From Phoronis australis (Eukaryota; Animalia; Phoronida), in the NCBI GenBank assembly GCA_002633005.1, contig NMRA01001255.1:1-33989 (forward strand): DNA of 33,989 nucleotides. The letters are read 5' to 3'. Within the stretch, counting starts at the first letter, position 1, and each line of letters starts with the position of its first letter. Positions 1,966-33,720 of this stretch are shown here, piece after piece. The notes beneath the pieces were generated by a model, which made no database searches, was not told the DNA's origin, and saw nothing but the letters and a program-made list of their open reading frames with translations. Made by a program: the position numbers and the translations under genes.

Positions 1966-3819
1966 AAGAGCACCAATGAGGCACCAACGATGAATCTTCA
2001 AGTGTAGCCACAAACGTTTTCCGATCGCCTAATGCTCATTGAATCTTTGGGGACAAAGGTCTCTTTTCAAAATATAAAGGCGTAATCTTTGGGACCTTCT
2101 TGAAACTCACTTTCACCATATTAAACTCTCTTCTGCGTGTGGTCCTGTCCCTAAAGTTTCTGGCTCATGTCTCAAAATTGTTTAGACCCAGCTTTGAAGT
2201 GTAGCCTGGTTCAGTAAACTTATACTTGACCACCACAAAGTAAACGTCTCCTCTTCTAGACTAGCCTTAAACCGTGATTTAGCCTCCTGCTTGTACATTT
2301 GGTTACAAGAAACCTGTGAAGTCCTGGTGTAGCTTAGTTGTGCATGGTGGTGACATTGGATAACCACGTAGAATACATGTACCATTTTTTCTTTCCAGTC
2401 ATTGTCTGGAGCCGGTGAAAAGGAATTATTGCTTACAGACGCTCCCCGTTTGCTTTTGAGTGACAAAAACGCCCAGGCTGCTTCGTTAAGAACTCAAGAT
2501 CAGTCGTGTTTTCTGCGTCGTGGGTACAGTGTTGTAAATATATGTCGTAACTGAATTTGGGCACCTAGGAAATAGTAAATGAAAAGAAACACTGACATGA
2601 GACGGAAAATAATTGCGAATTGTCTTACTGATTTATTAAACTCCTCGTTATCTATCAATTACTGCATTATGTCTTTCATGGTGCAACAGCCGTAATCCCC
2701 GACGCCATTTCTAATGCAGTTATGGAAGTAAAAACACTACATGTACATGTACATGTACATGACTACCACTGGCGGCGCACAATAAAGGGCTGGGGGGCTC
2801 TAACCCCAGTTTTTTTCAGTGCTCTGGCGCCCATGTCCTATGGGCAGTGTGCCACAGAGTGGCTGGGGGGGGGGGGCTATAGCCCGACTTTTTCCAGTGA
2901 TGCGTCGCCCATGCTTCGTCGGCTATAAGGGTGTACGGACGCCGTTCGTGCACCAAACAGTCATTGTGAGAACAATCCCAAAGACTTGTTTGGTTTTATT
3001 TTCTTGGTCCGTAACTTCGAGTTACAGACACCCAATACATACTATACATTACCAGCAGCGCTATCTTGCATGTACTTAAAGTGCTTAGTGAAATTTATTG
3101 AACATTGAATCATCATTTTGCATACATGTGCATATCGGCACTTTCTGCTTGCTATAAGTCTCCTTCAATAGCATTCACACGAGTGAGGCCCGCTACAGAA
3201 ACCTCCCCTGCGCCCTCGCACCATGCAATCAGCTGCACACGACCACGGAAAACAAGTTCGACGCTTACTTCTTTGAACCGAACCTGGAAAAACATAAAAA
3301 GGGTGTGTATTTCTATCCCCTGAAGGCTTTGGACGTGTACTGTACATGTACATGTACACTGCAATTCCTGTCTCTTAAAAGGATACTAAACCCTATTTTG
3401 ACGATTTCTTCCAATCCTCGTTCTATACCTGATAATGAATCATTGGCGTCAAAGTGGCGCTGGAATCAATTAAAAACGTGTACTCCTTGCATCACATATT
3501 GGACATTATGGTCTTTGGTGGACGGGAGTTTCCCACAGTTGCCGTGTAATTTGCTAAACGTATAGGTCACGCTTGCCCATTTAGCAAACCTGGAAATTAG
3601 TTTTCAAAATTCCCTCCAAACTTCTAAGGGTTATTGCGGTTTACAGGGCATTATTTTGTTTCAAAGAACTGGATGGGAAAGTCGTTTTTAATATCTGCTA
3701 ATAGGTCAAAACCTGGTTCGGTATCCTTTTAACCAACAAATAGTCAAATTGTTTGTTTTACAAACTTCAGTAACGTTGATCCGGATATTTTTGCTTAGAC
3801 CTGCTTAGTGCCGAGGCAG

Positions 3820-3868
3820 CACCACCATCAACAACGACAACAACAATAGTAACAACAATGACAACAGC
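3820..3868. repeat. Degenerate (AAC)n microsatellite
   Basis: CACCACCATCAACAACGACAACAACAATAGTAACAACAATGACAACAGC. Confidence 0.8.
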
Positions 3869-4895
3869 TTTCATTAGTTGCAAAGACATAAGACCTTCTG
3901 CCACTCAATGCTAGCAGACCGGTGTCATTATTCTGGTTTTTTAACAGAAAATCAGAAGCAGAACCCGCAATATTCCTGCCGTGTATGGCCAATGGATTGA
4001 CCAACACCTACAGGTATGAACGGGTTGCCTGAAAACACGTGCCCGTAGCTTTAGGAGTACGCACCCCCACACCTCCTCCCCCCGCACAACGAGTGGAGGG
4101 AATATCAAGTCAAATACAGGGTACATTAGGCTAGAATAACCATGCCTGCAGAAAAATTGATCGTGGCCGAGGTGAGCGGGGCCGGGGTGCAAAGCGACCG
4201 AGGGGTCGGATTTCAGCTTTAGCATTCCCTCGTTTTAATAACTAGCTACTGGCGTGTCACTATAAATGTTGATGGTCCATCGTGGTTCGATGTTTGCAAA
4301 TTCACAATGATTGCTAAAACACGTCATGGATGTCATGCTCTGTTAGAACTCAGCTGTTGCAGAGACAGCGGTAGAGTCGTGTCACGTGATGCGATTACAA
4401 AAGCATCGTACCTTCTTTGTCTTCATTAAGAGGAAGAGCTTGAAGAGAAACCGCAACTAAGACAAGTGTCAAAATCAGAAAGAAACACTCTCTCTTCATT
4501 TTCGAGTTGTGTCAAGGCTTCAGTTCACGCTGTAATATAAATATTTTACGTCACTCTAAAAGTACGAATATAGCGTACATGTACATGTATTTGTAAGCAA
4601 CACGGGTTCAAACTACTATTCTAATCTTTCTCACATGTCTTCAAAAACCAAAACTTATCTAAAATGTTTTAATGCGTAAAAGAACACTCATCTCTATCTT
4701 GGTCTAACAGTTACCTCTAGATTACTGGAGTGGCCCATCACGCGCATTAGTCCTTAGTTGTGTAAAATTTTGAATGATTATTACAATGTTTTTCTAAATC
4801 GGCGTGTAGACCAAAGTTTGATGTGAATAAGTCTAGCCCTGGGAGGACCTCCACCCTTGTCGTACCAACAAATTTATTTTGAGACACAATGCCAA

Positions 4896-7254: not shown

Positions 7255-7925
7255 AGGCAAAAATTATTGAGGGGTGGGGTAGAAACCAATTCAACTTCGC
7301 CAAACTACCCCCTTCCTATTGCCAGCACCCCAACCCCTTTCACCGGATGCCTCCATAATTTTACCAACCCCACGCCCTCCATAGTTGGGGGGGAATCCCT
7401 GGATGCAGCCTTCAGGATTTGAGTAACCTTGAACCAACAAAATTTTTCGGAGAGTAAGAATGGGTCTAGGGCCAGCGCAGTGACGGCCGGGTAGGTGGGA
7501 GCTGCCTCAAGTAACTGTAGCTGAGATCTAACAGTATGAAAATATGAAATTCCATAACTAGAGCTAGTCGTTGCTCAGGTCAGCTATGATTCACTTGAAA
7601 CAGGCTCGTACCTACAATGTTTCCTTCTGCGCTGGCTATAAGGAAAAGATTCATGTAATTATGATCCAGTTTCGTTAAAAGTTCATTTTATAATGACAGT
7701 TCTTTGAAGGAATTTTTTAAAGGTGAGCTCCCGAGGTCCCTGGTAGAGTGCCTTCAAGGCTGTTTCAGAATCCCTTGATGAATCACATCCGGTAGACCCA
7801 TCTCTGGTTGCTGGGGAAAATGATAGATGTCGTGACTGTCTCAAAAATGTACACAGTTCAACGCCTGGAGTTCAAATTCTGTGGAACTCTAAGATTCTGC
7901 GCGGGCCTTTTGCATGTTTACACCA
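7255..7925 (-). repeat. Old dispersed repeat (~650 bp), inverted relative to 33085-33720
   Basis: Colinear shared blocks: GCGCTGGCCCTAGACCCATTCTTA, TTTTGTTGGTTCA.GGTTACTCAAAT, CAAGTGAATCATA, TTCATCAAGGGATT, ACCAGGGAC.TCGGGA.CTCACCTTT, TCCTTCAAAGAA. Identity is roughly 70-75% by eye. Confidence 0.85.
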
Positions 7926-8020
7926 GCCAGTCATTATGTGCTCTGTTTGTGTAGTATTTACGCGACTGGTAAGCAAACGATTCAGTTTTAAAGAATTTGG
8001 ATTCATTGCGCAATACCATT

Positions 8021-8462
8021 GTGCCGGGTTGCATGAAACAGTCCCAAATAGGGACTCAACTAAGTTCCCTAAATCTTTTGCCTCTTTTTGTCTTTGTTTA
8101 CTTACAGATGCAATCTTTTGATATCATTTCATCTTCATTTTGAGGTCCAATTTGCATATTGACATTTTGTAAGAAATAAAACTAAAAACTGAGTCCAGAA
8201 TTCAATGAAAATAAATACATGTAGGCACTTAGTCCTTAAGTTAGGAGCGTTGCACGAAAAGATCCCTATATATTTTCGATAACATTGAGACTTCAACGTC
8301 CAGTTCACCCTCGATTTGTATCAAAGCCAAAAGTTGACTTAGTAATGAAACTAAAACAGCAGAAAAAAGGGCAATCGATATTTTCACAAGTCCAAAAATA
8401 CGCAGTGGATTTAGGGAACTTAGTTGAGTCCCTAATTGGGATTGTTTCATGCAACCGAGCAC
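8021..8462. mobile_element. MITE with 55-bp terminal inverted repeats
   Basis: 8021-8075 (GTGCCGGGTTGCATGAAACAGTCCCAAATAGGGACTCAACTAAGTTCCCTAAATC) matches the reverse complement of 8408-8462 at 51/55. The interior is AT-rich and non-coding. No clean TSD. Confidence 0.85.
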
Positions 8463-9255
8463 TGGAAACTAAAAAACATCAAGGAAGTGCAAAGGCAACC
8501 TTTCCAAGTTGATGAGAAATGAGCATAAATTGATTTATAAGTACTTAAACCTCTTTTCCCGCCTCCGGTTTCTGAATTTAATCCCACTAATCTAGCTCTT
8601 CATGTATGCGAAATTTAGGCGCATGCGCCAATATGCGAATCGCTTGGCTAAAAAATGTCGCAAAAAGGCATGGATGCATACATGTATATGTACAGTGTAC
8701 ACGTGTTACATGAGCCTAAAGGCTCGGCAATACGGTTAAAAGTCATGCATACTCTTAGTACTTAGGCTTTTAGATGCCCCTTTTATGATCACGGCATTGC
8801 GTTATGAATTTCATTCTTTTTGTAATCAGATACTCCTCTGTTGCAATTCAGTTTAATGTTGATGATGTTTGACCTTCTGATACGACGCGTTTTGATACAT
8901 TACGGAAGTGTGTGACATTATCAACAACTCTGTGTATTTAGTGGTGTAGAAAAATCAGATATCCTGACAAAACTATGAAAAACAAGCGTTGTGTGATATT
9001 TTCACAAGTCATTTCTTCATAACTTCATGGTCAGTTTATTGATTTAGTGCCAAAAATAACCGCAATTTGCCAAAATGACATACAAATCACCTTTGACTCA
9101 AGCGATGCTTCGTTCAACGTAACGTATCTCCAATAATTGGAATAGACAATAGCTTAAACCTCTACCTGCTCTTCCTCAATGTGTTACGCCTTGAACTCAT
9201 GTCTCTGTTTTCACATTGGAAGTAAAAACAACATAAATTCATCAAATTTACTCAC

Positions 9256-10602: not shown

Positions 10603-10608
10603 TTTATT
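10603..10608 (-). terminator. Polyadenylation signal AATAAA of the defensin-like gene
   Basis: TTTATT on the + strand, shortly downstream of the predicted stop in exon 4. Confidence 0.5.
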
Positions 10609-10664: not shown

Positions 10665-11349
10665 CTGAAAATAAAGTATTAAACGTTAATTAATTACAGC
10701 CGTTAGAAACTCGAGCAGAAAATGAAAGACACTTGAGCTGAGTACAGACTGTTGGAGGTAGAGAGGCGAATTTGCAAAATTCATTTCAAAGTTATACATG
10801 TAGTTTTAGTTAGTGTAATGGATTTCCGCCAACATTGTCGACTTGTCCAGTGAGATGAAATCATCGATCACAACTTATGGAAATTAATCCGAAGTAATTT
10901 TGTCGACTTTGCTACGCCGCCAGGCTGTTTCTATCGGCACAAAATTTGTCGTCCTTTGTCGATTTCCACAGACGAAAACTGAAAGAAGTTGAATCTCTTT
11001 GAATAGAGACGGAGACAACAAACTTGAGTTATCTGACTCGTGATCCAAAGCCTTGCAACTTTCGTCCATGAACATAGAACGCGCGAACCAGTCAGTCATC
11101 GCTCCCCAGCAGAAGCAGAAAAGCGGCTCTAAAATGTCGGAAAAGTAATTTTGCAAAGAATTCCATTTGTTGTGATTTATGATTTTTCATCCAGTTATTC
11201 ACTTGGATGAGTGCGTGGAAACCTTCACCGTCTGTAATGTCCCCGTGTTTTTCGGGTCAAGTTAAGTAGGGATAACGATGAGCAAAACATAATAACTACA
11301 AGTTTTAACTTTGGAATAATTTAAAAATTATTCCAAATTCCCTGACACA

Positions 11350-11864
11350 GGGGACCTAATCTCCAAGTTCAGACTTGAACTCATTTATCTAAGTTCTCGA
11401 AATCGTTTGCGTACTTGAGACGTTCATAACTCACATGGGTAATCTCTTTCTATCACCTTCTCTTTATCATGAGCTCTTTCTGATTCATGACAAGCTCTGG
11501 CAATATTACTAAAATCGAGTCTTTAGTTCAGTGAAAATAAGTAGAGGCTAAGTCCGAAATTTGGGGCGTTGCAGTAAATTAACAGTTCTCTACTTATGTT
11601 CCATAAAATTGAGAAGTCAGCATAGAATTCAATCTCGTTTTGCATTAGGAATAACACTAAAACGCCATAAGAATGGACAATACATGTAAGTGTTTCCACA
11701 AGTCCACAACTCGGCAGTAAATTTAGGCCGAAACTCGCTGGAGTTCTAATTGGGTCAGTTTCACGAAGGCAATGGGGCATTTGTCCCAAATTGTCTTTCA
11801 TCGTCAATATCTCGCGTAACCTCGTAAAATCTCGGTTTTTCATCGAGCTCCTTGCGTTAATTAA
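11350..11864 (-). pseudogene. Decayed L1/Tx1-like LINE apurinic endonuclease remnant (second copy ~14290-14946)
   Basis: One frame (with stops) gives, in order, LINARS, RLREIL, CLRETD, SYGVLVLF, YCNAPN, VIERDYPC and MSSSLNL. These resemble the APE-domain motifs SLNVRG, KRxxIF, CLQETH, SxGVAIL, IYAPN, IxGGDFNC and LNLxD. Confidence 0.45.
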
Positions 11865-12361
11865 CTCTACCCAGTGTTGGAAAATTAGAAACCAAGCCCT
11901 TCAGTCATAGGTGTAAGATTTGGAAGGATCTTATTCAGGCTAAAACGGCACAGTGGGCTCTGCTCTGTGATTTGAAAACTGATGCGGTGATACGGTATGC
12001 ATGTAGTTTTACTTTATAGAAGTCACATAATGCGTTGAAGTGGTGCGCGATTTTTTCCAGTATCGGCGATCCAATATTCGGTGGTACTCTGATCGACCGG
12101 AGTTGATTGCACTCGTGGCCAGTCGTGAGGTATTGGGAGCTGACTGCGACCCAAAACCACACCACTTGCAACTAAAGAAGTGACGATTCCTGCTAAGGTA
12201 CGTTACATTAGTTTGTGTAGCTTTTGGATCAAAAAGTGTTAAAATTGTTGGGGTTGGGCGCTGCCTTCCTTTAAACATTGAGGCGCAGTTTTCAAAAAAG
12301 TTTAGTCGCAGACCAGATCCAAAAATTCTATTTTTTGGAATTTGCATACGTTTTTACTTAC

Positions 12362-12490
12362 AATCGAGACATTTGCAGAATTCAAACCCGAATAAGTTGC
12401 TGCAGTACCCGCCTTTCCTATGCCCTCCTTCTTTGCATCTTTTGCGGCATTTCCTCCCATTACAAGATCTGCGGAATCTTTGTAGGGCAT
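12362..12490 (-). CDS. Exon 3, copy A: furin site plus CS-alpha-beta defensin-like domain, (D)ALQRFRR-SCNGRKCRKRCKEGGHRKGGYCSNLFGFEFCKCLD
   Basis: Acceptor CTATTTCAG|, 129-nt phase 1-1 exon, donor T|GTAAGT. It has the same six-Cys framework as copy B, an RFRR site and net charge about +6. It is read in a different frame from the ORF-track call 12302..12490. Confidence 0.85.
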
Positions 12491-14087
12491 CTGAAATAGA
12501 GGGCATTATTCACGTGTAAAATACATTCGTACTTCATTCCATAGAACTATAGCCCTGGAATACCAACTGCAATCTCGTGGCCGTTGACGATGCAAAGCGC
12601 ATGCGAGAGAGTTGCTTGCTTTCACTTGTTCCGTTGTGTGTACTTGCATGCTCTGGAATCTACTATCACTTATGCTTTTCGCATCTCCCCCATTTTCAAC
12701 GGAATTGCAAAAGAGCCATATCACCAGAAAGCCTTTTGCCATTCAATGATGCCTATACCAGAATTCATAAGTAATTATCATTTCGCATACATGACTGGTT
12801 TAAAATATTTTTTAATTCTAAAAACCAAGAGTGTTACCAAACTTCGACAAACAACAGCGTGTAATAGTAACATAAACAGGAAGTGAACCAGAGAGGTTAT
12901 AAAAATGACTAGTTAAGCCATTACAGAAAGAATTTGAATGATTTAAAAGATTTCTTCGATATAAAAATAAAGGTTTAGAATATGGATCCCTCACATCCAT
13001 TGTGGATAATTTAGTCAGGCACTTATCCAAAATTATACATTTTTATGTATTATAATTAACTGAACCTTTTTTGGAGTTTGATACAATTACATTCTTCAGA
13101 AAAATTTGTATTGAAGTAACATTTAAGAAAAATATGGTAAACTACTCCAGGTATATATCCGAAAGTTGCTGATAAAGGTTGTTTGATAGATAAAAATGGG
13201 GAAAATCTACCACAAATCTTTGAAATGCACGGTTTATACATCACCATATTAGCTGCGGTGTAGGAATTCCCATAATAACTTAAAAATAAATTCTTTTGTT
13301 CAGAATATGAAAGTTTGTGATCCTGATACATACATGTACACTGTATATTCTATGTTACCGTAAACAAGAGACATTGGAACACGTCTTTACGATTGTTATT
13401 TTAGTAAAGGCAGTGGAGTCTAGTCATTGACAATATTCATAAAAAGAAACAGTGTTATTTTGAACACCTGTTGTATAGTTGTCAAGGTCAACATTAATGA
13501 ACGAAAAAACGGAACAGTTGGATTGAAAAGCGGTACTTCATGATAAAAAGCGAGACACCTGGGTCTAGGCCAAAACGTAAGGATGAAATGTTCGCTGCAA
13601 CCATAGACTATCGTGAGTACATGGACCACCAACTCCATATATTTTCAATGGACGAAATCTATGATCTTACGCATAAGCCGTGACGTTATTATTCACTAGC
13701 GACACCTGACAAAATCAGCAAGTATTACTTCCGGCAAGCATGGTTGGGTGTTCGGCCACACAGGCGAAATGTAAAGGTCTAAGTTTCCACAGCAGTGACG
13801 TTTGAATTACGCAATTACATGACCAATAGCATTGCCAAAAGTACTTCTGCTATTGGAGGCTTTGAACAGCGTTTCAGCAAAGTACATGCGAGCATTTCGC
13901 GGAAACTAAAATTGGTAATTTAGGAGGGTGGCGCCGTCTCTAGGATGATTTGCAAGAAAGCGTTGGGGGTTGCGAATCTATTGATCTATGCTGCAACACA
14001 CAAACGTGCAGAACAGGAGATTTAACACCCAAAAAATCTCGACCAAGTTGCACAAATAAATTATCATGAAACAAAAATTATTAAAAN

Positions 14088-15778
14088 CTAAAATGTCGGA
14101 AAAGTAATTTTGCAAAGAATTCGATTAGTTGTGATTTATAATTTTTCATCCAGTTATTCACTTGGATGAGTGCGTGGAAATCTTCACCGTCTGTAATGTC
14201 CCTGTGTTTTTCGGGTCAAGTTAAGTAGGGATAACGATGAGCAAAAAATAATAACTACAAGTTAAATTATTCCCAATTCCCTGACACAGGGGACCTAATC
14301 TCCAAGTTCAGACTTGAACTCATTTATCTAAGTTCTCGAAATCGTTTGCGTACTTGAGACGTTCATAACTCACATGGGTAATCTCTTTCTATCACCTTCT
14401 CTTTATCATGAGCTCTTTCTGATTCATGACAAGCTCTGGCAATATTACTAAAATCGAGTCTTAGTTCAATGAAAATAAATAGAGGCCTAGTCCAAAATTT
14501 GGGGCGTTGCAGTAAATTAACAGTTCTCCACTTATAACAGCTTATTATTTAAAATGACTTATTCTTATTAAAATGACATAGGCAAAAAATTGAATTTCGG
14601 ACCTCAAAAGTGAGGCCTCCTATATTAATATAGGAGGCCTCGCCGAAGGGAGGCCAGAGAGCGGGGTTCCTCTATATTAATATGGAATGCTCCGCCGAAT
14701 TGAGAAGTCAACATAGAGTTCACTCTCGTTTTGAATTAGTAATAACACTAAAACGACATAAGAATGGACAATAAGTGTTTCCACAAGTCCACAACTCCGC
14801 AGTAAATTTAGGCCAAAACTCGCTGGAGTTCTAATCGGGCCAGTTTCACGAAGGCAATCGGGCATTTGTCCCTAATTGTCTTTCATCGTCAATATCTCGC
14901 GTAACCTCGCAAAATCTCGGTTTTTCATCGATCTCCTTGCGTTAATTAACTCTACCCAGTGTTGGAAAAGTAGAAACCAAGCCCTTCAGTCATATGTGTA
15001 AGATTTGGAAGGATCTCATTTAGGCTGAAACGGCACAGTGGGCTCTGGTCTGTCATTTGAAAACTGATGCGGTGATACGGTATGCATGTAGTTTTACTTT
15101 ATAGAAGTCACTTAATGCGTTGAAGTGGTGCGCGATTTTCTCCAGTCTCGGCGATCCAATATTCGGTGGTACTCTGATCGACCGGAGTTGATTGCACTCG
15201 TGGCCAGTCGTGAGGTATCGGGAGCTGACTGCGACCCAAAACCACACCACTTGCAATTAAAGAAGTGACGATTCCTGCTAAGGTATGTTACATTAGTTTG
15301 TGTAGCTTTTGGATCAAAAACTGTTAAAATTGTTGGGGTTGGGCGCTGCCTTCCTTTAAACATTGAGGCGCAGTTTTCAAAAAAGTTTAGTCGCAGACCA
15401 GAACCAAGAATTCTATTTTTTGGAATTTGCATACGTTTTTACTTACAATCGAGACATTTGCAGAATTTCAACCCGAATATGTTGATGCAGTATCCGCCTC
15501 TCCAATACCCTCTTTCTTTGCAACTTTTGCGGCATTCCTTCCTATTGCAAGATCTGCGGATTCTCTGTAGGGCAACTGAAACAGAAGGCATTATTCACAT
15601 GTAAAATACATTCGTACTTCATTCCATAGAACTATAGCCCTGGAATACCAACTGCAATCTCGTGGCCGTTGACGTTGCAATGCTGCAACACACAAACGTG
15701 CAGAACAAGAGATTTAACACTCAAAAATTCTCGACCAAGTTGCACAAATATATTATCATGAAACAAAAATTATTAAAA
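14088..15778. repeat. Duplicated segment copy B (X' plus Y'); lacks the 1.39-kb A-only segment and carries a ~153-bp B-only insertion
   Basis: Begins CTAAAATGTCGGAAAAG, identical to 11129. It is colinear with copy A at a few percent divergence outside exon 3. Confidence 0.95.
15447..15575 (-). CDS. Exon 3, copy B: furin site plus CS-alpha-beta defensin-like domain, (V)ALQRIRR-SCNRKECRKSCKERGYWRGGYCINIFGLKFCKCLD
   Basis: Acceptor CTGTTTCAG|, 129-nt phase 1-1 exon, donor T|GTAAGT. Cys spacing is C-x4-C-x3-C-x10-C-x8-C-x-C with a GGYC gamma-core. An R-x-R-R convertase site precedes the mature peptide, whose net charge is about +6. The phase matches exon 2. Confidence 0.85.
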
Positions 15779-16903: not shown

Positions 16904-18080
16904 CGTTGAAAAGTAAGCTGTTCTTTGCTTTAATTAGTTTGTACAACAAACTTTCGTAGTGTCTACACAAGTGTCTTTCATCAGATGGTAGTTGATATAA
17001 TAGATCGCCCAGTGTAAGTGGCATCACAAACACATATATATGAGTAAATATATAATAAAACTCTGTACAAAACATATCATAATAAAACAGTAGCGGTACT
17101 TCGACTATACATCAGTCATCAAAGGCAAATAAATCTAAAAATTATCAACGCTATCGTGTATGATACATAAAACAAGAACAATGACATTAAACACAAATAT
17201 AAGGTTGCATACATAAGAGCGCAATTACAGAAGGAATTGTCATGGAAACTAAATTAAACGTACACTGTACTATGTAACATAGTAAAATTTAATAAAATAC
17301 ATAGGTGAAACAACTTATGGACATTATTTATATAACGACAAGGTACGATGGAACCCAGTGTCTTGAGAATTTATGTAAGGTGTTTCAGTTTTTATTATTA
17401 ATGCTTCAAGTATTTTCAAACGAAAGAGGTCACGTTCGAAATACCTGACGATGGTATTATCAACAATATCTGAACGAGAAATTTTCTGTTTGTGGAGTGT
17501 TTGGAAGTGATCTTTAATTGATCCATTCTGTAAGTGCATAGATAACCGGCGAGATAAAGTGCAAGTTGTATAACCAACGTACCTTGAGCAATCAGTGTTT
17601 GAACGAATACATTCGTTGTGGGGACAATTGAACTGATAAATCAAGTCAGTTTTGGCTAACACTCGGACAGACTTTGAGCACATATTGTTTTTAACAACAA
17701 GATCTTTAGTTTTGTGGTTTTGGTAATATATAATTAATTTAAAGCTGTCTTCTGGCTTAACGGTCTTAACATTATTATGGATGATCCGTTTTAAAACTCG
17801 TTCATCTTCAATATAACGTGAATGGAATTGGTTGCGGTAGAATAGTTTTTTGGTACAACCACTTGCTTGTTTTAAACACATAGGCTTCTGCAACTGGCTT
17901 ATGAAAAGCTTCACATTCTCATCAACAAACTTATTGCTGTAACCGTTATTTATCATAATTTGCTTAATGCGATTACACTCGGTGTTGAAGGTTTTCCAGT
18001 CTGAGCAAACGGAATATGCTCTTTTCAAAAAGCTTGTCAAAACAGAGACTTTATATCTCAGAGGACATTGGCTAGTTTCG
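16900..18080 (-). mobile_element. 5'-truncated Penelope-like retroelement (PLE) with C-terminal GIY-YIG endonuclease
   Basis: An ORF encoding the RT thumb/linker and GIY-YIG domain is followed by a ~420-bp 3' region ending at (TA)n. The 5' end is cut at the (TACATA)/(TA)n tract. Confidence 0.9.
17324..18076 (-). pseudogene. PLE ORF C-terminal fragment (RT thumb, linker, GIY-YIG nuclease)
   Basis: SQCPLRYKVSVLTSFLKRAYSVCS...NNGYS is typical of the PLE thumb region. LIYQFNCPHNEC...YVGYTTCTLSRRLSMH...SIKDH...LKILEALII...INSQ supplies the GIY-YIG motifs including the conserved R, E and N. The RT core is absent and the TTG start in the ORF track is not a true start. Confidence 0.9.
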
Positions 18081-18082
18081 TG

Positions 18083-18160
<78 letters not shown>
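18083..18160. repeat. (TACATA)n/(TA)n microsatellite at PLE 5' end
   Basis: Directly visible. Confidence 0.95.
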
Positions 18161-18161
<1 letters not shown>

Positions 18162-20351
18162 CTGGACTCATCACGACGGATCTACACTACTGCAATAGGT
18201 GACAGGTCCAGTTTATAGATAGACCCATCCCGAATTTGGTGTCCCCAGTTACAAAGAGAGACTTCGCTGATCAACATTTACCGACAGGTGTACCCACCTA
18301 TAATCATATTTCATGTAGAAACACATATCTTTTTGTGGGTGTCCCCATTTTAGTCCTTGAAAAGCAAAAATTTACCAGATAAGAAAAGTTAAAATAATTA
18401 AAATTAAATAAGAAGCTGTTGGTAGCTCTGTGCAACTGGACCCTCTGATTGTCTAAATATAAAAATTCCACGACGAGAAATTATTGCGGTATTACGAGCA
18501 TGACGCGATATCTTTTAATCTCTTTGTCACACGAATTTCACTTATTCCTGGCCTGGGTAGCTAATTAATGTGTTCATCATGCTTGTGGAACACAGATGTC
18601 CCTGCACGACAGGCCAGGCTGTCTGGGCGGTGGGCCAGATCTCATAGCATTCACTCTTGTGAGTACTTTGGGGGGGGGGGGCAACCTATGTGACTACAAA
18701 ATACACTTATATTTCAAATTCCAAAAAGTTCCCACGTCTACCCTTGCACATTTTTTTAAGAAAAGTTGTTTTTGTTGCAAGAAATATTACGCACATTCCT
18801 GCCACTTGGTGGCACTTTTCTATTAAATTGACCTACATGTACCAAAGAGCCAGATTGTATTGTTGTGCACAGCAACTTAAATATGGCAGCTCCCATGGAT
18901 AATTCAAGGTTTCTCAAACAGCACTAAATTTTAATACCCACAACCTGAAGAAGCTTAGAGAAGCATCATGACAAAAGTTGATTGATTATGTGTATCAGAA
19001 CAAACGAAAAAGAACGATGTGTCACAAACGTTTGTGCAGGAAAACAGTTGCTTTGCCCAACTGGCTTATACACTGCAGCATGTTCTGCTTATACTACTCT
19101 AGAAGACTAAGCGTCATAACTAAAATTGAAAAGGCATAGAAACACGCATAGCAACGTTTCAAAACATCAACAGTAGTAATAAAGCTGAAGCTGCCGAAAG
19201 TGACACAGTTGTTACCCAAGATTTACCATGAAAATCAATTAGATTTGTAAAATATGAAGCACCAAATTAACCTGAAATTCATACATTCTGACACATTAGT
19301 GCATCATTTGCGAGCAGGAAAACTATGTTATGGGTCATATTTCAAGAAAGAGAGAATGAGGCAACTTTCTATAGCTTTGAATATAAAACAGGTTTGTGTG
19401 TTTTTATTGGGTACATCTTAGTGTTTTCGATGTGTGCTTAGTATTTTCACCAGTTCTTGTTTAGCTTGTTCAGTCCCTTAACGTTTCAGGCTGTAGACAA
19501 TAGTGCTGTCTCAACTGGCCCAGTAGAGAAGGTGGCCATGTCATAGGTTCTCCATATGCCGGACGTTTTTCGGCACATTTTGCATCACACTGATTGAACA
19601 ATCGAAGTCATGTTGCTTTAAGATTGAAAGTACCTTTTGAGCACTAGAAGGATGACTTAGGGGGCCGTTAGTTTCTTTATATTTTCCTAGCTTGAACAAA
19701 TACTCCTGAAATCCTGTTTTTCAAAGAGTTCGTCATTGCCCAAATTGAAAATCGACCATTTTTACACTGATTGCGTCAGGGGATAATCGTATGGCGTTAT
19801 ACTGTGGGTCTGATTTTAAGCACTTTAAATCAAGCGTTTTTGGGGAAGGTTAAAGAGAGTAAATGTTGCAATGAACTGTTAAATCAACGTGCGCAAGTGT
19901 ACCTCATCCCCCTCCGTAATCCTGGAACAGGGGCAACTTCTTCTGAATTTTTTGCAAACTGCAAACATTAATTACTTAGGTAGTTGCAATGGTACCTAAA
20001 TTAAAATGCCCGACTGGCCGGCGTCTCCGTAGTAATCTGAGGACGGGGGAAGCCCCTGCCCATTTTGTCAAACGTTCTGCAAACATATTGGCTATGGTAT
20101 GATCATCTGATTAAAAAAATAAATTTCAATATCTGCATTGGTACATCAGCGGACTCATTTTCAGTCGCATCAATTAATCTTATTGGACACGGTCAAAATT
20201 TTTAGGCGACAGATCACTGACAGACCGCTCCTTAATCTGTTATGCTAGTTTTTGATAAATTTCCGATACATGTAAGTCTGTCTGAAAAATGTGCATACCA
20301 GCACCCTGGTAGTTGAATGTTAAATCAGTGATACCAGTTTGCATTTTTCAG

Positions 20352-23380: not shown

Positions 23381-24443
23381 CGATATCGTAACTCTAGCGA
23401 TAGATTTACTAGAGTTACTAAGAATATCGATAGAGTTAATAAGTCTTTCGATAGAGATAGAAAGTCGATCGACAGCGATAGTAAGTCTATCGATGGAATT
23501 AGTAACTCTATCGATAGAGTTAGTAAGTCTATCAATAGAGATAGTAAGTCTATCTTTGAGTAAGTAAGCCTATTAACAGAGATAGTAAGTCTATCTATAG
23601 AGATAATAAGTCTATCGATAGAGTTGTAACTCTATTCATAGCGATACTAAGTCTATAGATGAAGTTAGTAAGTCTCTTGATACAGTTAGTACGTCTACCA
23701 ATAGAGATACTAAGTCTATCGATAGAGTTACTAAATCTATCGATAGAGATATTAGGTCTGTCTATAGAACTAGTAAGTGTATCGATAGAGAAAGAAAGTC
23801 TATCGATAGAGTTAGTTAGTCCACCAATAGAGTTAGTAAGTCTATCAATAGAGATATTAACCCTATCGACAGAGTTAATAAGTCTATCGATAGAGTTAGT
23901 AAGTATGTTGATAGAATTAATGTATATCGATAGAGATAGTAAGTCTATCGATAGAGTTAGTAAGTCTATTGATAGAGATAGTAAGTCCATCGATAGAGTT
24001 AGTAAGTCTATCGATAGAGTAATTTAGTCTATCGATAGAGTTGATAATTCTACCGACAGAGGTAGTAAATCCCTCAAAAACGATAGTAAGTGTATCGATA
24101 GAGTTAGTAAGTTTATCAATATAGGTACGAAGTCTATCGATAGAGTTAGTATACCTATCAATAGAGATAATAACCCTATCGACAGAATTAATAAGTGTAT
24201 CGATAGAGTTAGTTAGTCTCTTGATGGAGATAGCAAGTCCACCGATAGAGTTAGTAAACCTATCGATAGAGATATTAACCCTATCGACAGAGTTGATAAG
24301 TGTATCGATAGAGTTAGTAAGTCTATTGATGGAGATAGTAAGTCCATCGACAGTGTTAATAAATCTATCGATAGAGTTTGTAAGTCTATCAATAGAAATA
24401 GTAAGTGTATCGATAGAGATGGTAAGTCTATCGATAGAGTTAG
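23381..24443. repeat. 21-bp minisatellite, consensus AGTAAGTCTATCGATAGAG(T/A)T, about 50 units
   Basis: Clear 21-nt periodicity. The consensus unit contains the 12-bp palindrome TCTATCGATAGA, and GAGTTA/GAGATA variants often alternate. This array explains the LSIELVS/SIDR heptad ORFs. Confidence 0.97.
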
Positions 24444-25097
24444 CAACGGAGAAAAAAGTTGTTGTGCCGTCCTTTTACAGCCACCGTAGGGTCAAGCACT
24501 GCATGTATACAACTACATGCACATGCAAAAAAAGACTTTAAACTTTCTCTTCCAAGAAATGCTTTAGAAAGCTTCATTTCACTGCTGTTAAGCTGTCATT
24601 GTCGTCCTATTATCAGAAACGTTTTGGTGTTTTGAAACAAGACCACGCTCGTCTTATCTTGGATTGTGAACTCAAATCACCATCAATGCATACATGCATC
24701 GTTTTCGAAACCGCATTTTCAAGGTTTCCAAACCCCAATAATCTCTGAAACGTTTTTGATTGGTTGATTTGTTACGATATTCTCGTTGGTAGCGGAAATA
24801 AATTTCCAACGCGGTAAGAATTATTCTGAGACCGGCTTGACGAGAATGAAAGTCCTAATTCAATTTTTAGCCAACTATACCGTAGGACGAAATGCAGTTT
24901 TAAATTTGAAGTGTTACCAAATTTTTCCACGTCGGATCCTAGACCAGACTCACGTTCTGTAGACGTAACAAACTCACGAAAACGCAAAACTTCGCAAGAT
25001 ATCGCCAGACGGTACAAGGATTGCACGTGATCACTTTCAATTTATTGCGAAACACTTGGGGAACATGGCCCAGAGCACTGACAGTTTTTGTTCTCAC

Positions 25098-25179
25098 CTC
25101 CGTCTCCGCCATCTACCGACAGCGCCTGGAGGCAGCCCACAGCCAGCATCAACACAAGGAATACCACGACGCACTTCAT
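25098..25179 (-). CDS. Exon 2 coding part: signal peptide plus start of propeptide, MKCVVVFLVLMLAVGCLQA-LSVDGGDG (phase-1 end)
   Basis: Acceptor TTTCAG| at 25193, exon starts 25192, ATG at 25179. There are 82 coding nt (27 codons + 1) ending GAG|GTGAGA. The N-terminus has a basic residue, a hydrophobic core and a small-residue cleavage site (LQA), typical of a signal peptide. GC content is higher than in the flanks. Confidence 0.85.
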
Positions 25180-26714: not shown

Positions 26715-28122
26715 AGACCCTATTCACGCCGACAGGAGGCGCGTTCCAAAACGAGGCTCGCTACGATAGCTCTGTTAGCTTATCGTCATAGGAGTCTGTG
26801 TTTCAGTCCGTGTTGTTCCCCGAACGGCTAGAAAAAATACGGACACGCTTCACAATCTCTAAAGACGTTGCCATACGCCGACGAAGCAAAATATGTCCGT
26901 GTAAAATAAATGTTTTGGAAAAGTTAGATCATATTTTGTCGCGTCTCGGTCAGTTGTCAAGCATCATAGTAACGACTGGAGAATGGGCCAGCCAGGTTGT
27001 ATTTTCATGACAACGGATTTAGGGGGGGGGNNNNNNCCCTCTCAAAAATATTGAAATATCACGCGAAATTCCCCCCACGAGGCACAAAAATTCCCCTAGT
27101 GAAAAATCTCTCTGAGTTCACATAACCTGTAACCACACAGGTGACAATTTTTAAGAGCACAAAAGGCTACTTTAAAATGAGACAGAGCCTATGAGAGCTT
27201 GCAACAGGGCGGGGGTGCTATTGATGGTGATCGGGAGGTAGACTGTTCCCGCCCTCACTCGGCGAAAAAATCGCCTCTCAGTAGGCACTAGCAACGTGGG
27301 CCTTTCCCCTCGGATGAACGAGGTTTCTACAGAAACATGATAACTATGATTTCATTGTCCAGTTAACTGAAATTGAGTTCTAAAACGAGGTTACGTTTTG
27401 GACGAACGAATTAGGTATTTTAATTTTAAAATTCAACTTGGTCCAAATTGATACTTGAAATCTAACACATGAAATAGACGTAAGAATTATTACAACCAAG
27501 AAAGCAGAATTGATGGTCAAATAATTTTTATTTTCAATTACGATTCTGGTTTATTATTTTAATAAAAATATATCTAATAACATCAATTATTCTTTCAGAT
27601 CAATGACAAATCAACTGTTAGTCCCAGGGAGTGCATAGGATCAAGCTATGCTTGATTTTAATATTCTTGATCAACAAATTAAACCAGATGTGACTAATTG
27701 CACATGACAGCCACCACTGTCGAATATGTCTTCAACTCGTCAACAATACGAGCAGATGACCTGGTCCGCGTAGAAAGTATTTTGATCAACATTTTACAAG
27801 AAAAAAGTAACCTGCATTCAGCATAATACCTAATCCGTAACACTACGATCGCCGCAATTTGGTCATATTTACTTTTCATGTTTCGAACCTAGTTTTCCGA
27901 GAAAAATTAAACCCTTTCGTCAGACAATTCTTTGACGCCTTAACTTGTTCTCTAATGTAATTTTCTACGTCTGTGTGGTTTAATTGTTGACACATTATTA
28001 AATTCAATATCCAGGTTGGACTCGAAAGACCGGCTATTTAACTCACGCAATGTCTACTTTCGCTTTGTTTATCGCAGTCAGCCTCGCTTTGGATTTTAAT
28101 GTCTGCCGCGTGAATAGAGTCT
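26715..28122. mobile_element. Non-autonomous TIR DNA transposon, ISL2EU/PIF-Harbinger-like
   Basis: TIRs AGACCCTATTCACGC (26715-26729) and GCGTGAATAGAGTCT (28108-28122) match at 14/15 and are each flanked by AT (26713-14, 28123-24), consistent with an AT TSD. No intact ORF. It contains an N gap at 27031-27036. Confidence 0.65.
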
Positions 28123-32196: not shown

Positions 32197-32900
32197 GTTG
32201 GTTTCTGATTTACTTGTTTATGTATCTACGAAAATCGATAGAATCATAGATGATTTTTGGCAATTAGAAGCTAATATTTTAAAAAATGACTATGTTTCAG
32301 TGAATTTAGTTGAAGCCTGAATATGCCAAAATAGTAAAGTGCACTTGGACGCTTCTTGTCTATCTAAAATAACTCTCAAAGACATTGATGGAATTGGGAC
32401 AATTCCCAAAAATTTGCAATTCAAATGGCAATAAATGCATTGTTTTTACTTTGTTACAAGATTTGTGGTTTAAACTCACTAACAGGGGATCAAAAATGAA
32501 TTAAGTCATTAAAACATGGTAAATGTATTACACATGGATTCTATTGTTGGTTTCTGAATTACATGTATCAAGGAAAAAGAGCTGATTTGCTGATGATTTT
32601 TTTAAATAGAAGCTAATCTTGTAAGAAATAACAATACTTCAACGAAATTAGTTGCAAGCAGACATTGGGAAAATTCGATCTATCATCAGATTCCCAAATA
32701 TAAAAGTGCACTAAACAATTTGATTTGTCTATCTGAAAGAAGTCTCAACGATATTAACGAATCATCGGATAGCTCTACAAAGTGTCCTAATTTTTCTCAC
32801 AATTCAAATGACAATAAACTGTTTATTGACTTAGGGAAATACAGTAGATTAGCGGGTTTAATTTCACAAACCGTAGATTGTAGAAGTTAAAGTACTTAAA
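32197..32900. repeat. Old ~350-bp tandem duplication (two units)
   Basis: GTTGGTTTCTGA, GATGATTTTT, TAGAAGCTAAT, AAAGTGCACT, TTGTCTATCT and CAATTCAAATG.CAATAAA each occur twice in the same order, about 350 bp apart. Confidence 0.75.
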
Positions 32901-33084
32901 TAAATAAAATCAAACTTATTGCTCATCAACTGGGAAATGTTCTCTTTGCACTTCCTTGATGTTGTTAGTTTCCAATAGTATTGCGCAATGATATCTCTTT
33001 AAAACTGACTCATTTGCTTTCCATTCCTGTGCATACTACATACACGGAGCACGTGATAACTGACGTACCACGATAAAAATAAGG

Positions 33085-33720
33085 TGTACAACTGTGCAGT
33101 TGTCTGCGCAGAATATCAGTGACCCACGGGAGCTGAATTTGAGTTCCAGGCATTGAAGTGTGTACATTTTTTGGGAAACACTCTGTATCATTTCCCCCAG
33201 CCACAAGAAAGTTAATTACCGGCTATGTTTCATCAAGGGATTTTGAAACGGCCACAAAAGCATTCATACCAGGGACTTCGGGACCTCACCTTTCCAAAAA
33301 GTCCTTCAAAGAAAGGCCATGATAAAATGAAGTTTTCCCGAAACTTGATCATAATAAAACGGACCTTGACCTTAGATCCACCGCGGAGGAATACGTACAT
33401 GTACGAGCTAAGCTGCCTGTCTCAAGTGAATCATACCTGAGCTGACTAGCTCTAGCTCATCGAATCCACTGTTGGAACCCAGCTACCCGTCAGGGCGCTG
33501 GCCCTAGACCCATTCTTATACTCCGTGAAATTTTGTTGGTTCACGGTTACTCAAATACTGATGGTTGCATCTCAGGTAATATCTCCCAACCCACCTATGG
33601 AGAACGGTGGGGGGCGTACAAATATGGTGACATCCAGAGAACGGGGGAGGGTTGTGGCGATAGGAAGGAGGTAAGTTGGCGAGGTCGATTTGGTTTGGGC
33701 CCCCCAATATTTTTTACCTT
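33085..33720 (+). repeat. Old dispersed repeat (~650 bp), second copy
   Basis: Reverse-complement match to 7255-7925. Confidence 0.85.

Follow-up and report, generated by a model that had tools for sequence, protein, structure and literature searches.

A divergence peak on the mature-peptide exon of a defensin-like gene, present in two probably allelic versions in Phoronis australis

Why should a short coding exon differ far more between its two copies than the intron sequence on either side of it? The question is raised by contig NMRA01001255.1 of the Phoronis australis (Phoronida) assembly GCA_002633005.1, whose 33,989 nucleotides, numbered along the forward strand, were analyzed as a whole and are hereafter called the window. 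The window contains two copies, A and B, of a repeated unit, and each copy carries one exon for the mature part of a six-cysteine, defensin-like peptide. An earlier note on this DNA, made from the letters alone, had reported that the exon diverges faster than the adjacent intron, with mostly non-synonymous differences, and had read this as a signature of positive or balancing selection, with gene conversion as an alternative. We found that the divergence spike is a property of the assembled sequence, but replacements are not in excess within it. The two copies are probably alleles of a single gene, and the spike looks like a short stretch of old or imported sequence.

Read in the frame that follows two leading bases, the version A exon gives ALQRFRR-SCNGRKCRKRCKEGGHRKGGYCSNLFGFEFCKCLD and the version B exon gives ALQRIRR-SCNRKECRKSCKERGYWRGGYCINIFGLKFCKCLD, so that in each a 35-residue peptide with six cysteines follows an RxRR site. 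The mature peptides differ at 12 of 35 residues (G4R, R5K, K6E, R10S, G14R, H16Y, R17W, K18R, S23I, L25I, F28L, and E29K). Common to both are all six cysteines, the GGYC motif, the RxRR site, and a net charge of +6, made up in version A of nine K/R and three D/E and in version B of identical counts. The splice sites are also kept, namely, the acceptor tttcag and a perfect donor, GTAAGT. Because this donor (at 12361 and 15446) ends the exon, with a stop two codons beyond it, the C-terminus of the peptide is not fixed by the exon itself. When the translations and splice sites were rechecked, the coordinates, frame, counts, replacements, and conserved features listed in the earlier note were all borne out. 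The positions of these exons and of the other features discussed are given in Table 1.

Table 1. Positions of the exons, repeated units, and related features, counted from the first base of the window
Feature	Position	Strand	Description
Copy A of the repeated unit	11129-14086		includes 1389 bases present in A only (12599-13987)
Copy B of the repeated unit	14088-15778		includes 153 bases present in B only (near 14534-14686)
Single N	14087		exact boundary of copies A and B; taken as a scaffold join
Mature-peptide exon, version A	12490-12362	minus	129 nucleotides, phase 1 at both ends
Mature-peptide exon, version B	15575-15447	minus	129 nucleotides, phase 1 at both ends
Top high-divergence tract	12383-12501		19/119 columns differ (16%); likelihood-ratio scan, 5/2000 shuffles as good
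A/B-identical stretch	11336-11530		194 columns, 0 differences; a stretch that long in 6/2000 shuffles
Gene C, complete two-coding-exon defensin paralogue	3165-4499	minus	signal exon 4499-4412, mature exon 3283-3165
Signal-peptide exon	25098-25179	minus	27 residues and one base, MKCVVVFLVLMLAVGCLQALSVDGGDG; donor GAG/GTGAGA, phase 1

The repeated units were delimited by self-BLAST and aligned globally, with copy A represented by 11129-12598 plus 13988-14086, the A-only bases being excluded, and copy B by 14088-15778. This alignment contained 73 mismatches in 1538 ungapped columns. Seventeen of them fall among the 129 bases of the exon (12383, 12384, 12395, 12400, 12408, 12415, 12419, 12422, 12428, 12438, 12452, 12454, 12458, 12462, 12476, 12480, and 12490), compared with 56 in the 1409 columns of the flanks (3.97%), or 51 in 1398 when the columns beside the 153-base indel are removed. 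The exon was thus significantly more divergent than its flanks with either count (Fisher p=5.5e-5 and p=2.2e-5, respectively). Transitions and transversions numbered 10 and 7 within the exon, against 31 and 25 across the flanks. A permutation scan along the alignment placed the peak on the exon: the richest 129-column window, 12373-12501, held 19 mismatches, a value equalled in 8 of 20000 shuffles.

The likelihood-ratio scan gave, beside the top tract of Table 1, a near-equal alternative at 12383-12514 with 20 differences in 132 columns. The top tract covers most of the exon and the 11 bases at the 3' end of the upstream intron. Intron mismatches lie at 12497, 12501, and 12514, and two or three of them are inside the tract depending on the limit that is chosen. 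The last 21 bases of the exon, which code for FCKCLD, lie outside it. Elsewhere, the copies are much alike: the stretch of about 180 identical bp at 11340-11520 that the earlier note described was measured as the 194-column run of Table 1, and the block that it gave as 4/98 corresponds to 13988-14086 against 15680-15778, with four mismatches in 99 columns. The divergence between A and B is a mosaic of a high tract and a long identical run.

We next consider what kinds of sites changed. By Nei-Gojobori counting over the 42 whole codons of the exon, 3 of 24 synonymous sites and 13 of 102 non-synonymous sites differ; the fourteenth non-synonymous change of the earlier count is in the split 5' codon. 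The proportions of non-synonymous (pN) and synonymous (pS) sites that differ were 0.127 and 0.125, and the ratio of the corresponding distances (dN/dS) was 1.02 over the 42 codons and 1.31 over the 35 mature codons, neither different from 1 (non-synonymous versus synonymous, Fisher p=1.0). Because non-synonymous sites make up 81% of all sites (102/126) and non-synonymous changes 81% of all changes (13/16), the statement that the differences are mostly non-synonymous carries no signal; this proportion is the one expected without constraint. Against the same flanks, the non-synonymous sites were clearly raised (13/102 versus 56/1409, p=4.5e-4), and the synonymous sites were raised about as much, although not significantly (3/24, p=0.07). 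Synonymous, non-synonymous, and adjacent intron sites were each raised about three-fold. Of the earlier interpretation, the faster divergence of the exon therefore stands, whereas the excess of replacements does not.

The replacements nevertheless spare the scaffold. When 12 random replacements were simulated, the six cysteines remained intact in 8% of cases, the net charge was unchanged in 15%, and both were kept in 1.1%, in what was a post-hoc test. Because cysteines and net charge are jointly kept at a frequency of only 0.011 under random replacement, both versions look constrained as folded cationic peptides. Taken with the site counts, the spike looks like a short tract older than or foreign to its surroundings, lying on a conserved scaffold and with no acceleration specific to amino acids. 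Since the tract enters the intron and pS equals pN, an old haplotype tract kept by balancing selection, or a converted patch, fits better than recurrent positive selection.

Three observations speak against A and B being two genes, and the first concerns the junction between them. The window has two runs of N only, the single N at 14087 and six N at 27031-27036, and the first of these is a gap that separates the two copies on one scaffold. In several scaffolders, a lone N marks an overlap that was predicted but not found; a literature search on scaffolder behavior at negative gaps yielded nothing usable. A gap between copies and above-average haplotype divergence are among the marks given for false "heterotype" duplications (Ko et al. 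2022, PMC9516828). The present locus resembles the cases described there in having two diverged copies on one scaffold, with a gap between them and unusually different haplotypes. It differs in that the diagnostic marks also include half read depth, haplotype-specific k-mers, and discordant pairs, whereas here the evidence is the sequence alone. The six-N gap, flanked by nine consecutive G on one side and by a C run on the other, is a homopolymer drop-out and is not surrounded by any duplication. As for the large indels, no terminal inverted repeats and no long open frame were found in the A-only stretch, which belongs to the intron preceding exon A, and the B-only stretch, with a perfect 15+15 palindrome (14612-14641) whose arm occurs there once more, resembles a miniature inverted-repeat element.

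The arrangement of exons in the window points the same way. A scan of the window for first exons of the family's signal type returned two only, that of gene C and the one at 25179-25098, against three mature exons, and no such exon was found in copy A, including its 1389-base insertion. Past the exon, moreover, the minus strand carries no AATAAA or ATTAAA in copy A or copy B; the first, an AATAAA at 10608, is to the left of the unit. Because neither copy has a signal exon or a poly(A) signal of its own, the repeated unit contains only a middle exon. We infer that the signal exon at 25179-25098 serves A/B, because its phase fits both versions and it resembles the signal exon of gene C. A TATA-like ttttatatac lies upstream of this exon, and an acceptor-like tatttcag stands just before its ATG, so an extra 5' non-coding exon is possible. 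At the other end, a 100-codon open frame on the minus strand (10884-11186) runs over the left edge of the unit (11129), with an acceptor-like cttctttcag ending at 10979. This frame, for which Pfam gave no match, is a candidate for the last exon of the defensin-like gene. Because of the one-N junction, the shortage of signal exons, and the lack of separate poly(A) signals, we consider it likely that A and B are alleles and not paralogues, the assembler having stacked the two haplotypes of a single locus. The two exon copies described earlier are indeed present in the assembled sequence, but the junction and the single signal exon had been overlooked.

Gene C shows what a complete member of the family looks like. 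Its intron has phase 1 and the same position as in A/B, and its mature exon encodes an RSKRR site, a 30-residue six-cysteine peptide, and a stop, with a poly(A) signal (AATAAA) at 3099. This peptide, about 8 kb from A/B, matches Pfam PF01097 (Defensin_2) with 28.7 bits and E=1.3e-6 (cut-off 20.4).

To which family do A and B themselves belong? Both have the pattern C-x4-C-x3-C-x10-C-x8-C-x-C, as in cysteine-stabilized alpha-beta peptides, where C-x3-C falls in the helix and C-x-C in the last strand, and a six-frame translation of the window contains the cysteine pattern at three places only (A, B, and gene C). The AlphaFold models of both versions (predicted local distance difference test scores of 82.4 and 83.1) place a helix over residues 11-20 and two strands over residues 26-32 and 35-41, a predicted alpha-helix on a two-strand antiparallel sheet, as in the cysteine-stabilized alpha-beta superfamily, whose disulfides link C1-C4, C2-C5, and C3-C6. 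Among the 49 Foldseek matches listed, defensins of plants, insects, and fungi predominate, together with scorpion toxins. Look-alikes from the ESM Atlas, short scorpion toxins, scored 0.80 and 0.81, too low to exceed a lead. A profile of the three sequences A, B, and C matched a mosquito defensin (E=2.4e-4) and sapecin (E=4.8e-4) in the PDB. The strongest Pfam rows for A/B, all below the cut-off, were Myticin-prepro (E=0.39), SLR1-BP (E=0.0039), and PF24552 (E=0.13). Because the predicted fold and the cysteine pattern agree with the superfamily and the Pfam threshold is not reached, we file A/B as a divergent, previously undescribed member of the invertebrate defensin kind.

Relatives of the peptides were scarce. 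An exhaustive profile search of 1.84 billion representatives gave three matches with E<=0.001, of which two (P0010 and P0011) were repeat artefacts. The remaining match, P0012, is a distant 363-residue precursor with five tandem Defensin_2 domains split by acidic spacers. Word-index protein searches with version A and with the three-peptide alignment returned no candidate relative, metagenome scans with an exact 25-base pattern and with a protein pattern returned no match, and no paper with any of eight short peptide motifs was found in the full-text literature.

How could one scaffold come to hold both versions? The explanation that we put first, although tentatively and short of calling it probable, is that the haplotypes of one defensin-like gene are stacked here and that the extra divergence reflects two old allelic lineages kept by balancing selection. 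The assembler would have failed to merge the diverged haplotypes of a diploid bubble, and the scaffolder would have placed them end to end, one contig consisting of the left flank and haplotype A and the other of haplotype B and the right flank. The precursor would be produced by splicing the signal exon at 25179-25098 in phase 1 to exon A or exon B; it would be secreted and then cut after RxRR by a furin-type convertase. By analogy with invertebrate defensins, the released peptide, cationic (+6) and with three disulfides, may be antimicrobial. One individual would then carry two forms of the peptide that share one scaffold but have a third of their residues different, and the high-divergence tract would represent the two old lineages of the mature peptide under balancing selection. 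If so, the unmerged 1.6 kb, with a divergence of 4% that rises to 16% in its core, would be an island of divergence within sequence that was otherwise merged, and such an island would be the profile expected around a long-kept polymorphism.

Several points weigh against this explanation. The allele call rests on the assembled sequence, for which read depth and reads across the junction would be the decisive evidence, and the single N at 14087 could be an ambiguous base. The weight of the 4% flank divergence depends on the genome-wide heterozygosity. The rise in pS comes from only three synonymous differences and is not significant by itself, and one pair of sequences does not separate balancing selection from a converted patch. 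With regard to the family, none of 233 Foldseek matches had E<=0.001, and A and B fell below every Pfam gathering score, with no PF01097 row at E<=10.

The alternative that survives best is a real tandem duplication of the 1.6-kb unit, followed by divergence, in which two cassette exons share one signal exon and are used alternatively or jointly; we place it between unlikely and rather unlikely. Acceptors, donors, and frames are intact in both exons. The exon length of 129 nucleotides is a multiple of three, and the phases are equal, so that either exon or both could be read in frame. Both could draw on the one signal exon upstream and on the one poly(A) signal downstream. This equal length and phase between common flanking exons is the layout of mutually exclusive cassettes, and P0012 shows that multi-domain defensin precursors exist. 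However, a duplication leaves unexplained why its junction falls exactly on one of the only two gaps in 34 kb, and the large indels (1389 and 153 bases) and the 4% divergence of the flanks are equally expected of haplotypes; cassette use, moreover, is read from the DNA alone. The full form of this proposal, a single chromosome on which one promoter and one signal exon serve a defensin gene with alternative mature cassettes, so that splicing would yield two different antimicrobial peptides or a precursor containing both, seems to us quite unlikely. If true, it would amount to effector diversity by exon choice, like that of Dscam for receptors.

A second alternative concerns the tract rather than the copies and applies to alleles and paralogues alike: gene conversion may have brought a patch of about 120-130 bases from a family member elsewhere in the genome into one of the versions. 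The sharp limits of the tract (12383 to 12501 or 12514), the equality of pS and pN, and the inclusion of intron bases are what such an event would leave, and a multigene family is evident within the window. On the other hand, the window contains no donor. Gene C was examined in this role and rejected: its identity is only 58/111 to A and 56/111 to B, and at the 14 A/B differences that can be aligned, it matches A at five, B at three, and neither at six. Overall, we consider conversion unlikely.

We regard as improbable the principal reading of the earlier note, namely, that positive (diversifying) selection acted recurrently on replacements within the mature peptide. This reading would account for the rise of non-synonymous divergence above the flanks and for the kept scaffold and charge, and it has precedents in mussel myticin-C (PMC3164099) and MgCRP-I (PMC4558851). 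Nevertheless, the dN/dS values given above do not depart from 1, overall or in the mature codons, and the accompanying rise at synonymous and nearby intron sites is not predicted by selection on replacements alone. Finally, an in-silico chimera, in which reads of another paralogue, from a family whose introns are conserved, were built into a contig or gap fill and so produced the spike, would suit a gapped draft assembly with N runs of estimated sizes 1 and 6 and a tract of about short-read length, but is very improbable given the clean open frames, intact splice sites, and conserved scaffold in both versions and the lack of any sequence mark of a join at the tract edges.

The window looks eukaryotic, with long introns, microsatellites, and a retroelement tail. 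The last of these is a 285-codon frame on the minus strand within the long intron (17324-18181), whose relatives, at 46-65% identity, are proteins of 400-800 residues with a reverse-transcriptase domain (PF00078); a GIY-YIG-like motif suggests that it may be Penelope-like. At 23390-24500 lies a minisatellite in which a 21-base unit recurs dozens of times with 60-80% identity and gives rise to spurious long frames on both strands. An inverted pair of about 750 bases and 69% identity (7255-8021 and 32973-33719), with a second piece at 8463-8594 and 32845-32974, probably represents a dispersed repeat family. Pfam gave no match for eight long open frames, those downstream of the exon among them; Rfam at the gathering threshold had no match in the window, and megablast against a phage collection had none.

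If A and B are alleles, a single animal possesses two defensin-like peptides with a common scaffold but with one residue in three different. This would be a further case for the question whether balancing selection keeps immune effectors diverse, and the two natural peptides could be compared for their activity spectra. There is also a practical warning. In draft assemblies, a "tandem duplicate" that borders a gap of one N may result from the stacking of haplotypes, and in such families gene counts, as well as dN/dS computed from paralogues, can therefore mislead.

Compared with the invertebrate ("arthropod") defensins of PF01097, A and B have the same six cysteines with the C-x3-C and C-x-C motifs, the G-x-C before the first strand, a predicted helix and beta-hairpin, and a cationic character. 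The order of signal, short propeptide, dibasic or RxRR site, and mature peptide would also be shared if the putative link to the signal exon holds, and the neighboring paralogue, gene C, passes the Pfam threshold. They differ in that A/B miss the score, have a very short loop before the helix (C-x4-C), and are known from sequence and models.

The divergence itself has known counterparts as well. A hypervariable mature peptide on a fixed cysteine frame, with a conserved pre-pro region and introns, is described for mussel myticin-C (PMC3164099) and MgCRP-I (PMC4558851), and a pattern of conserved introns and variable exons for cone-snail toxins (PMC3862624). A/B are like these in that variation peaks in the mature peptide while the cysteine frame is invariant. 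For this set, highly divergent forms within one individual have also been reported, and balancing selection has been suggested. Unlike A/B, however, the myticins (eight cysteines) and MgCRP-I (C-C-CC-C-C) have other cysteine frameworks and are other families; the latter array also rules out MgCRP-I as the family of A/B. A further difference is that our case consists of only two sequences with a dN/dS of about 1. The balanced polymorphisms reported for antimicrobial peptides of Drosophila and the trans-species alleles reported for a cathelicidin of cod (PMC4874389, PMC6764478, PMC4451034) are similar in that divergent alleles of immune effectors are kept within a species, but they rest on population samples, whereas A/B rest on a single pair of sequences. 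A and B are thus a further instance, in a divergent defensin, of the known hypervariability of immune peptides and not a new kind of system.

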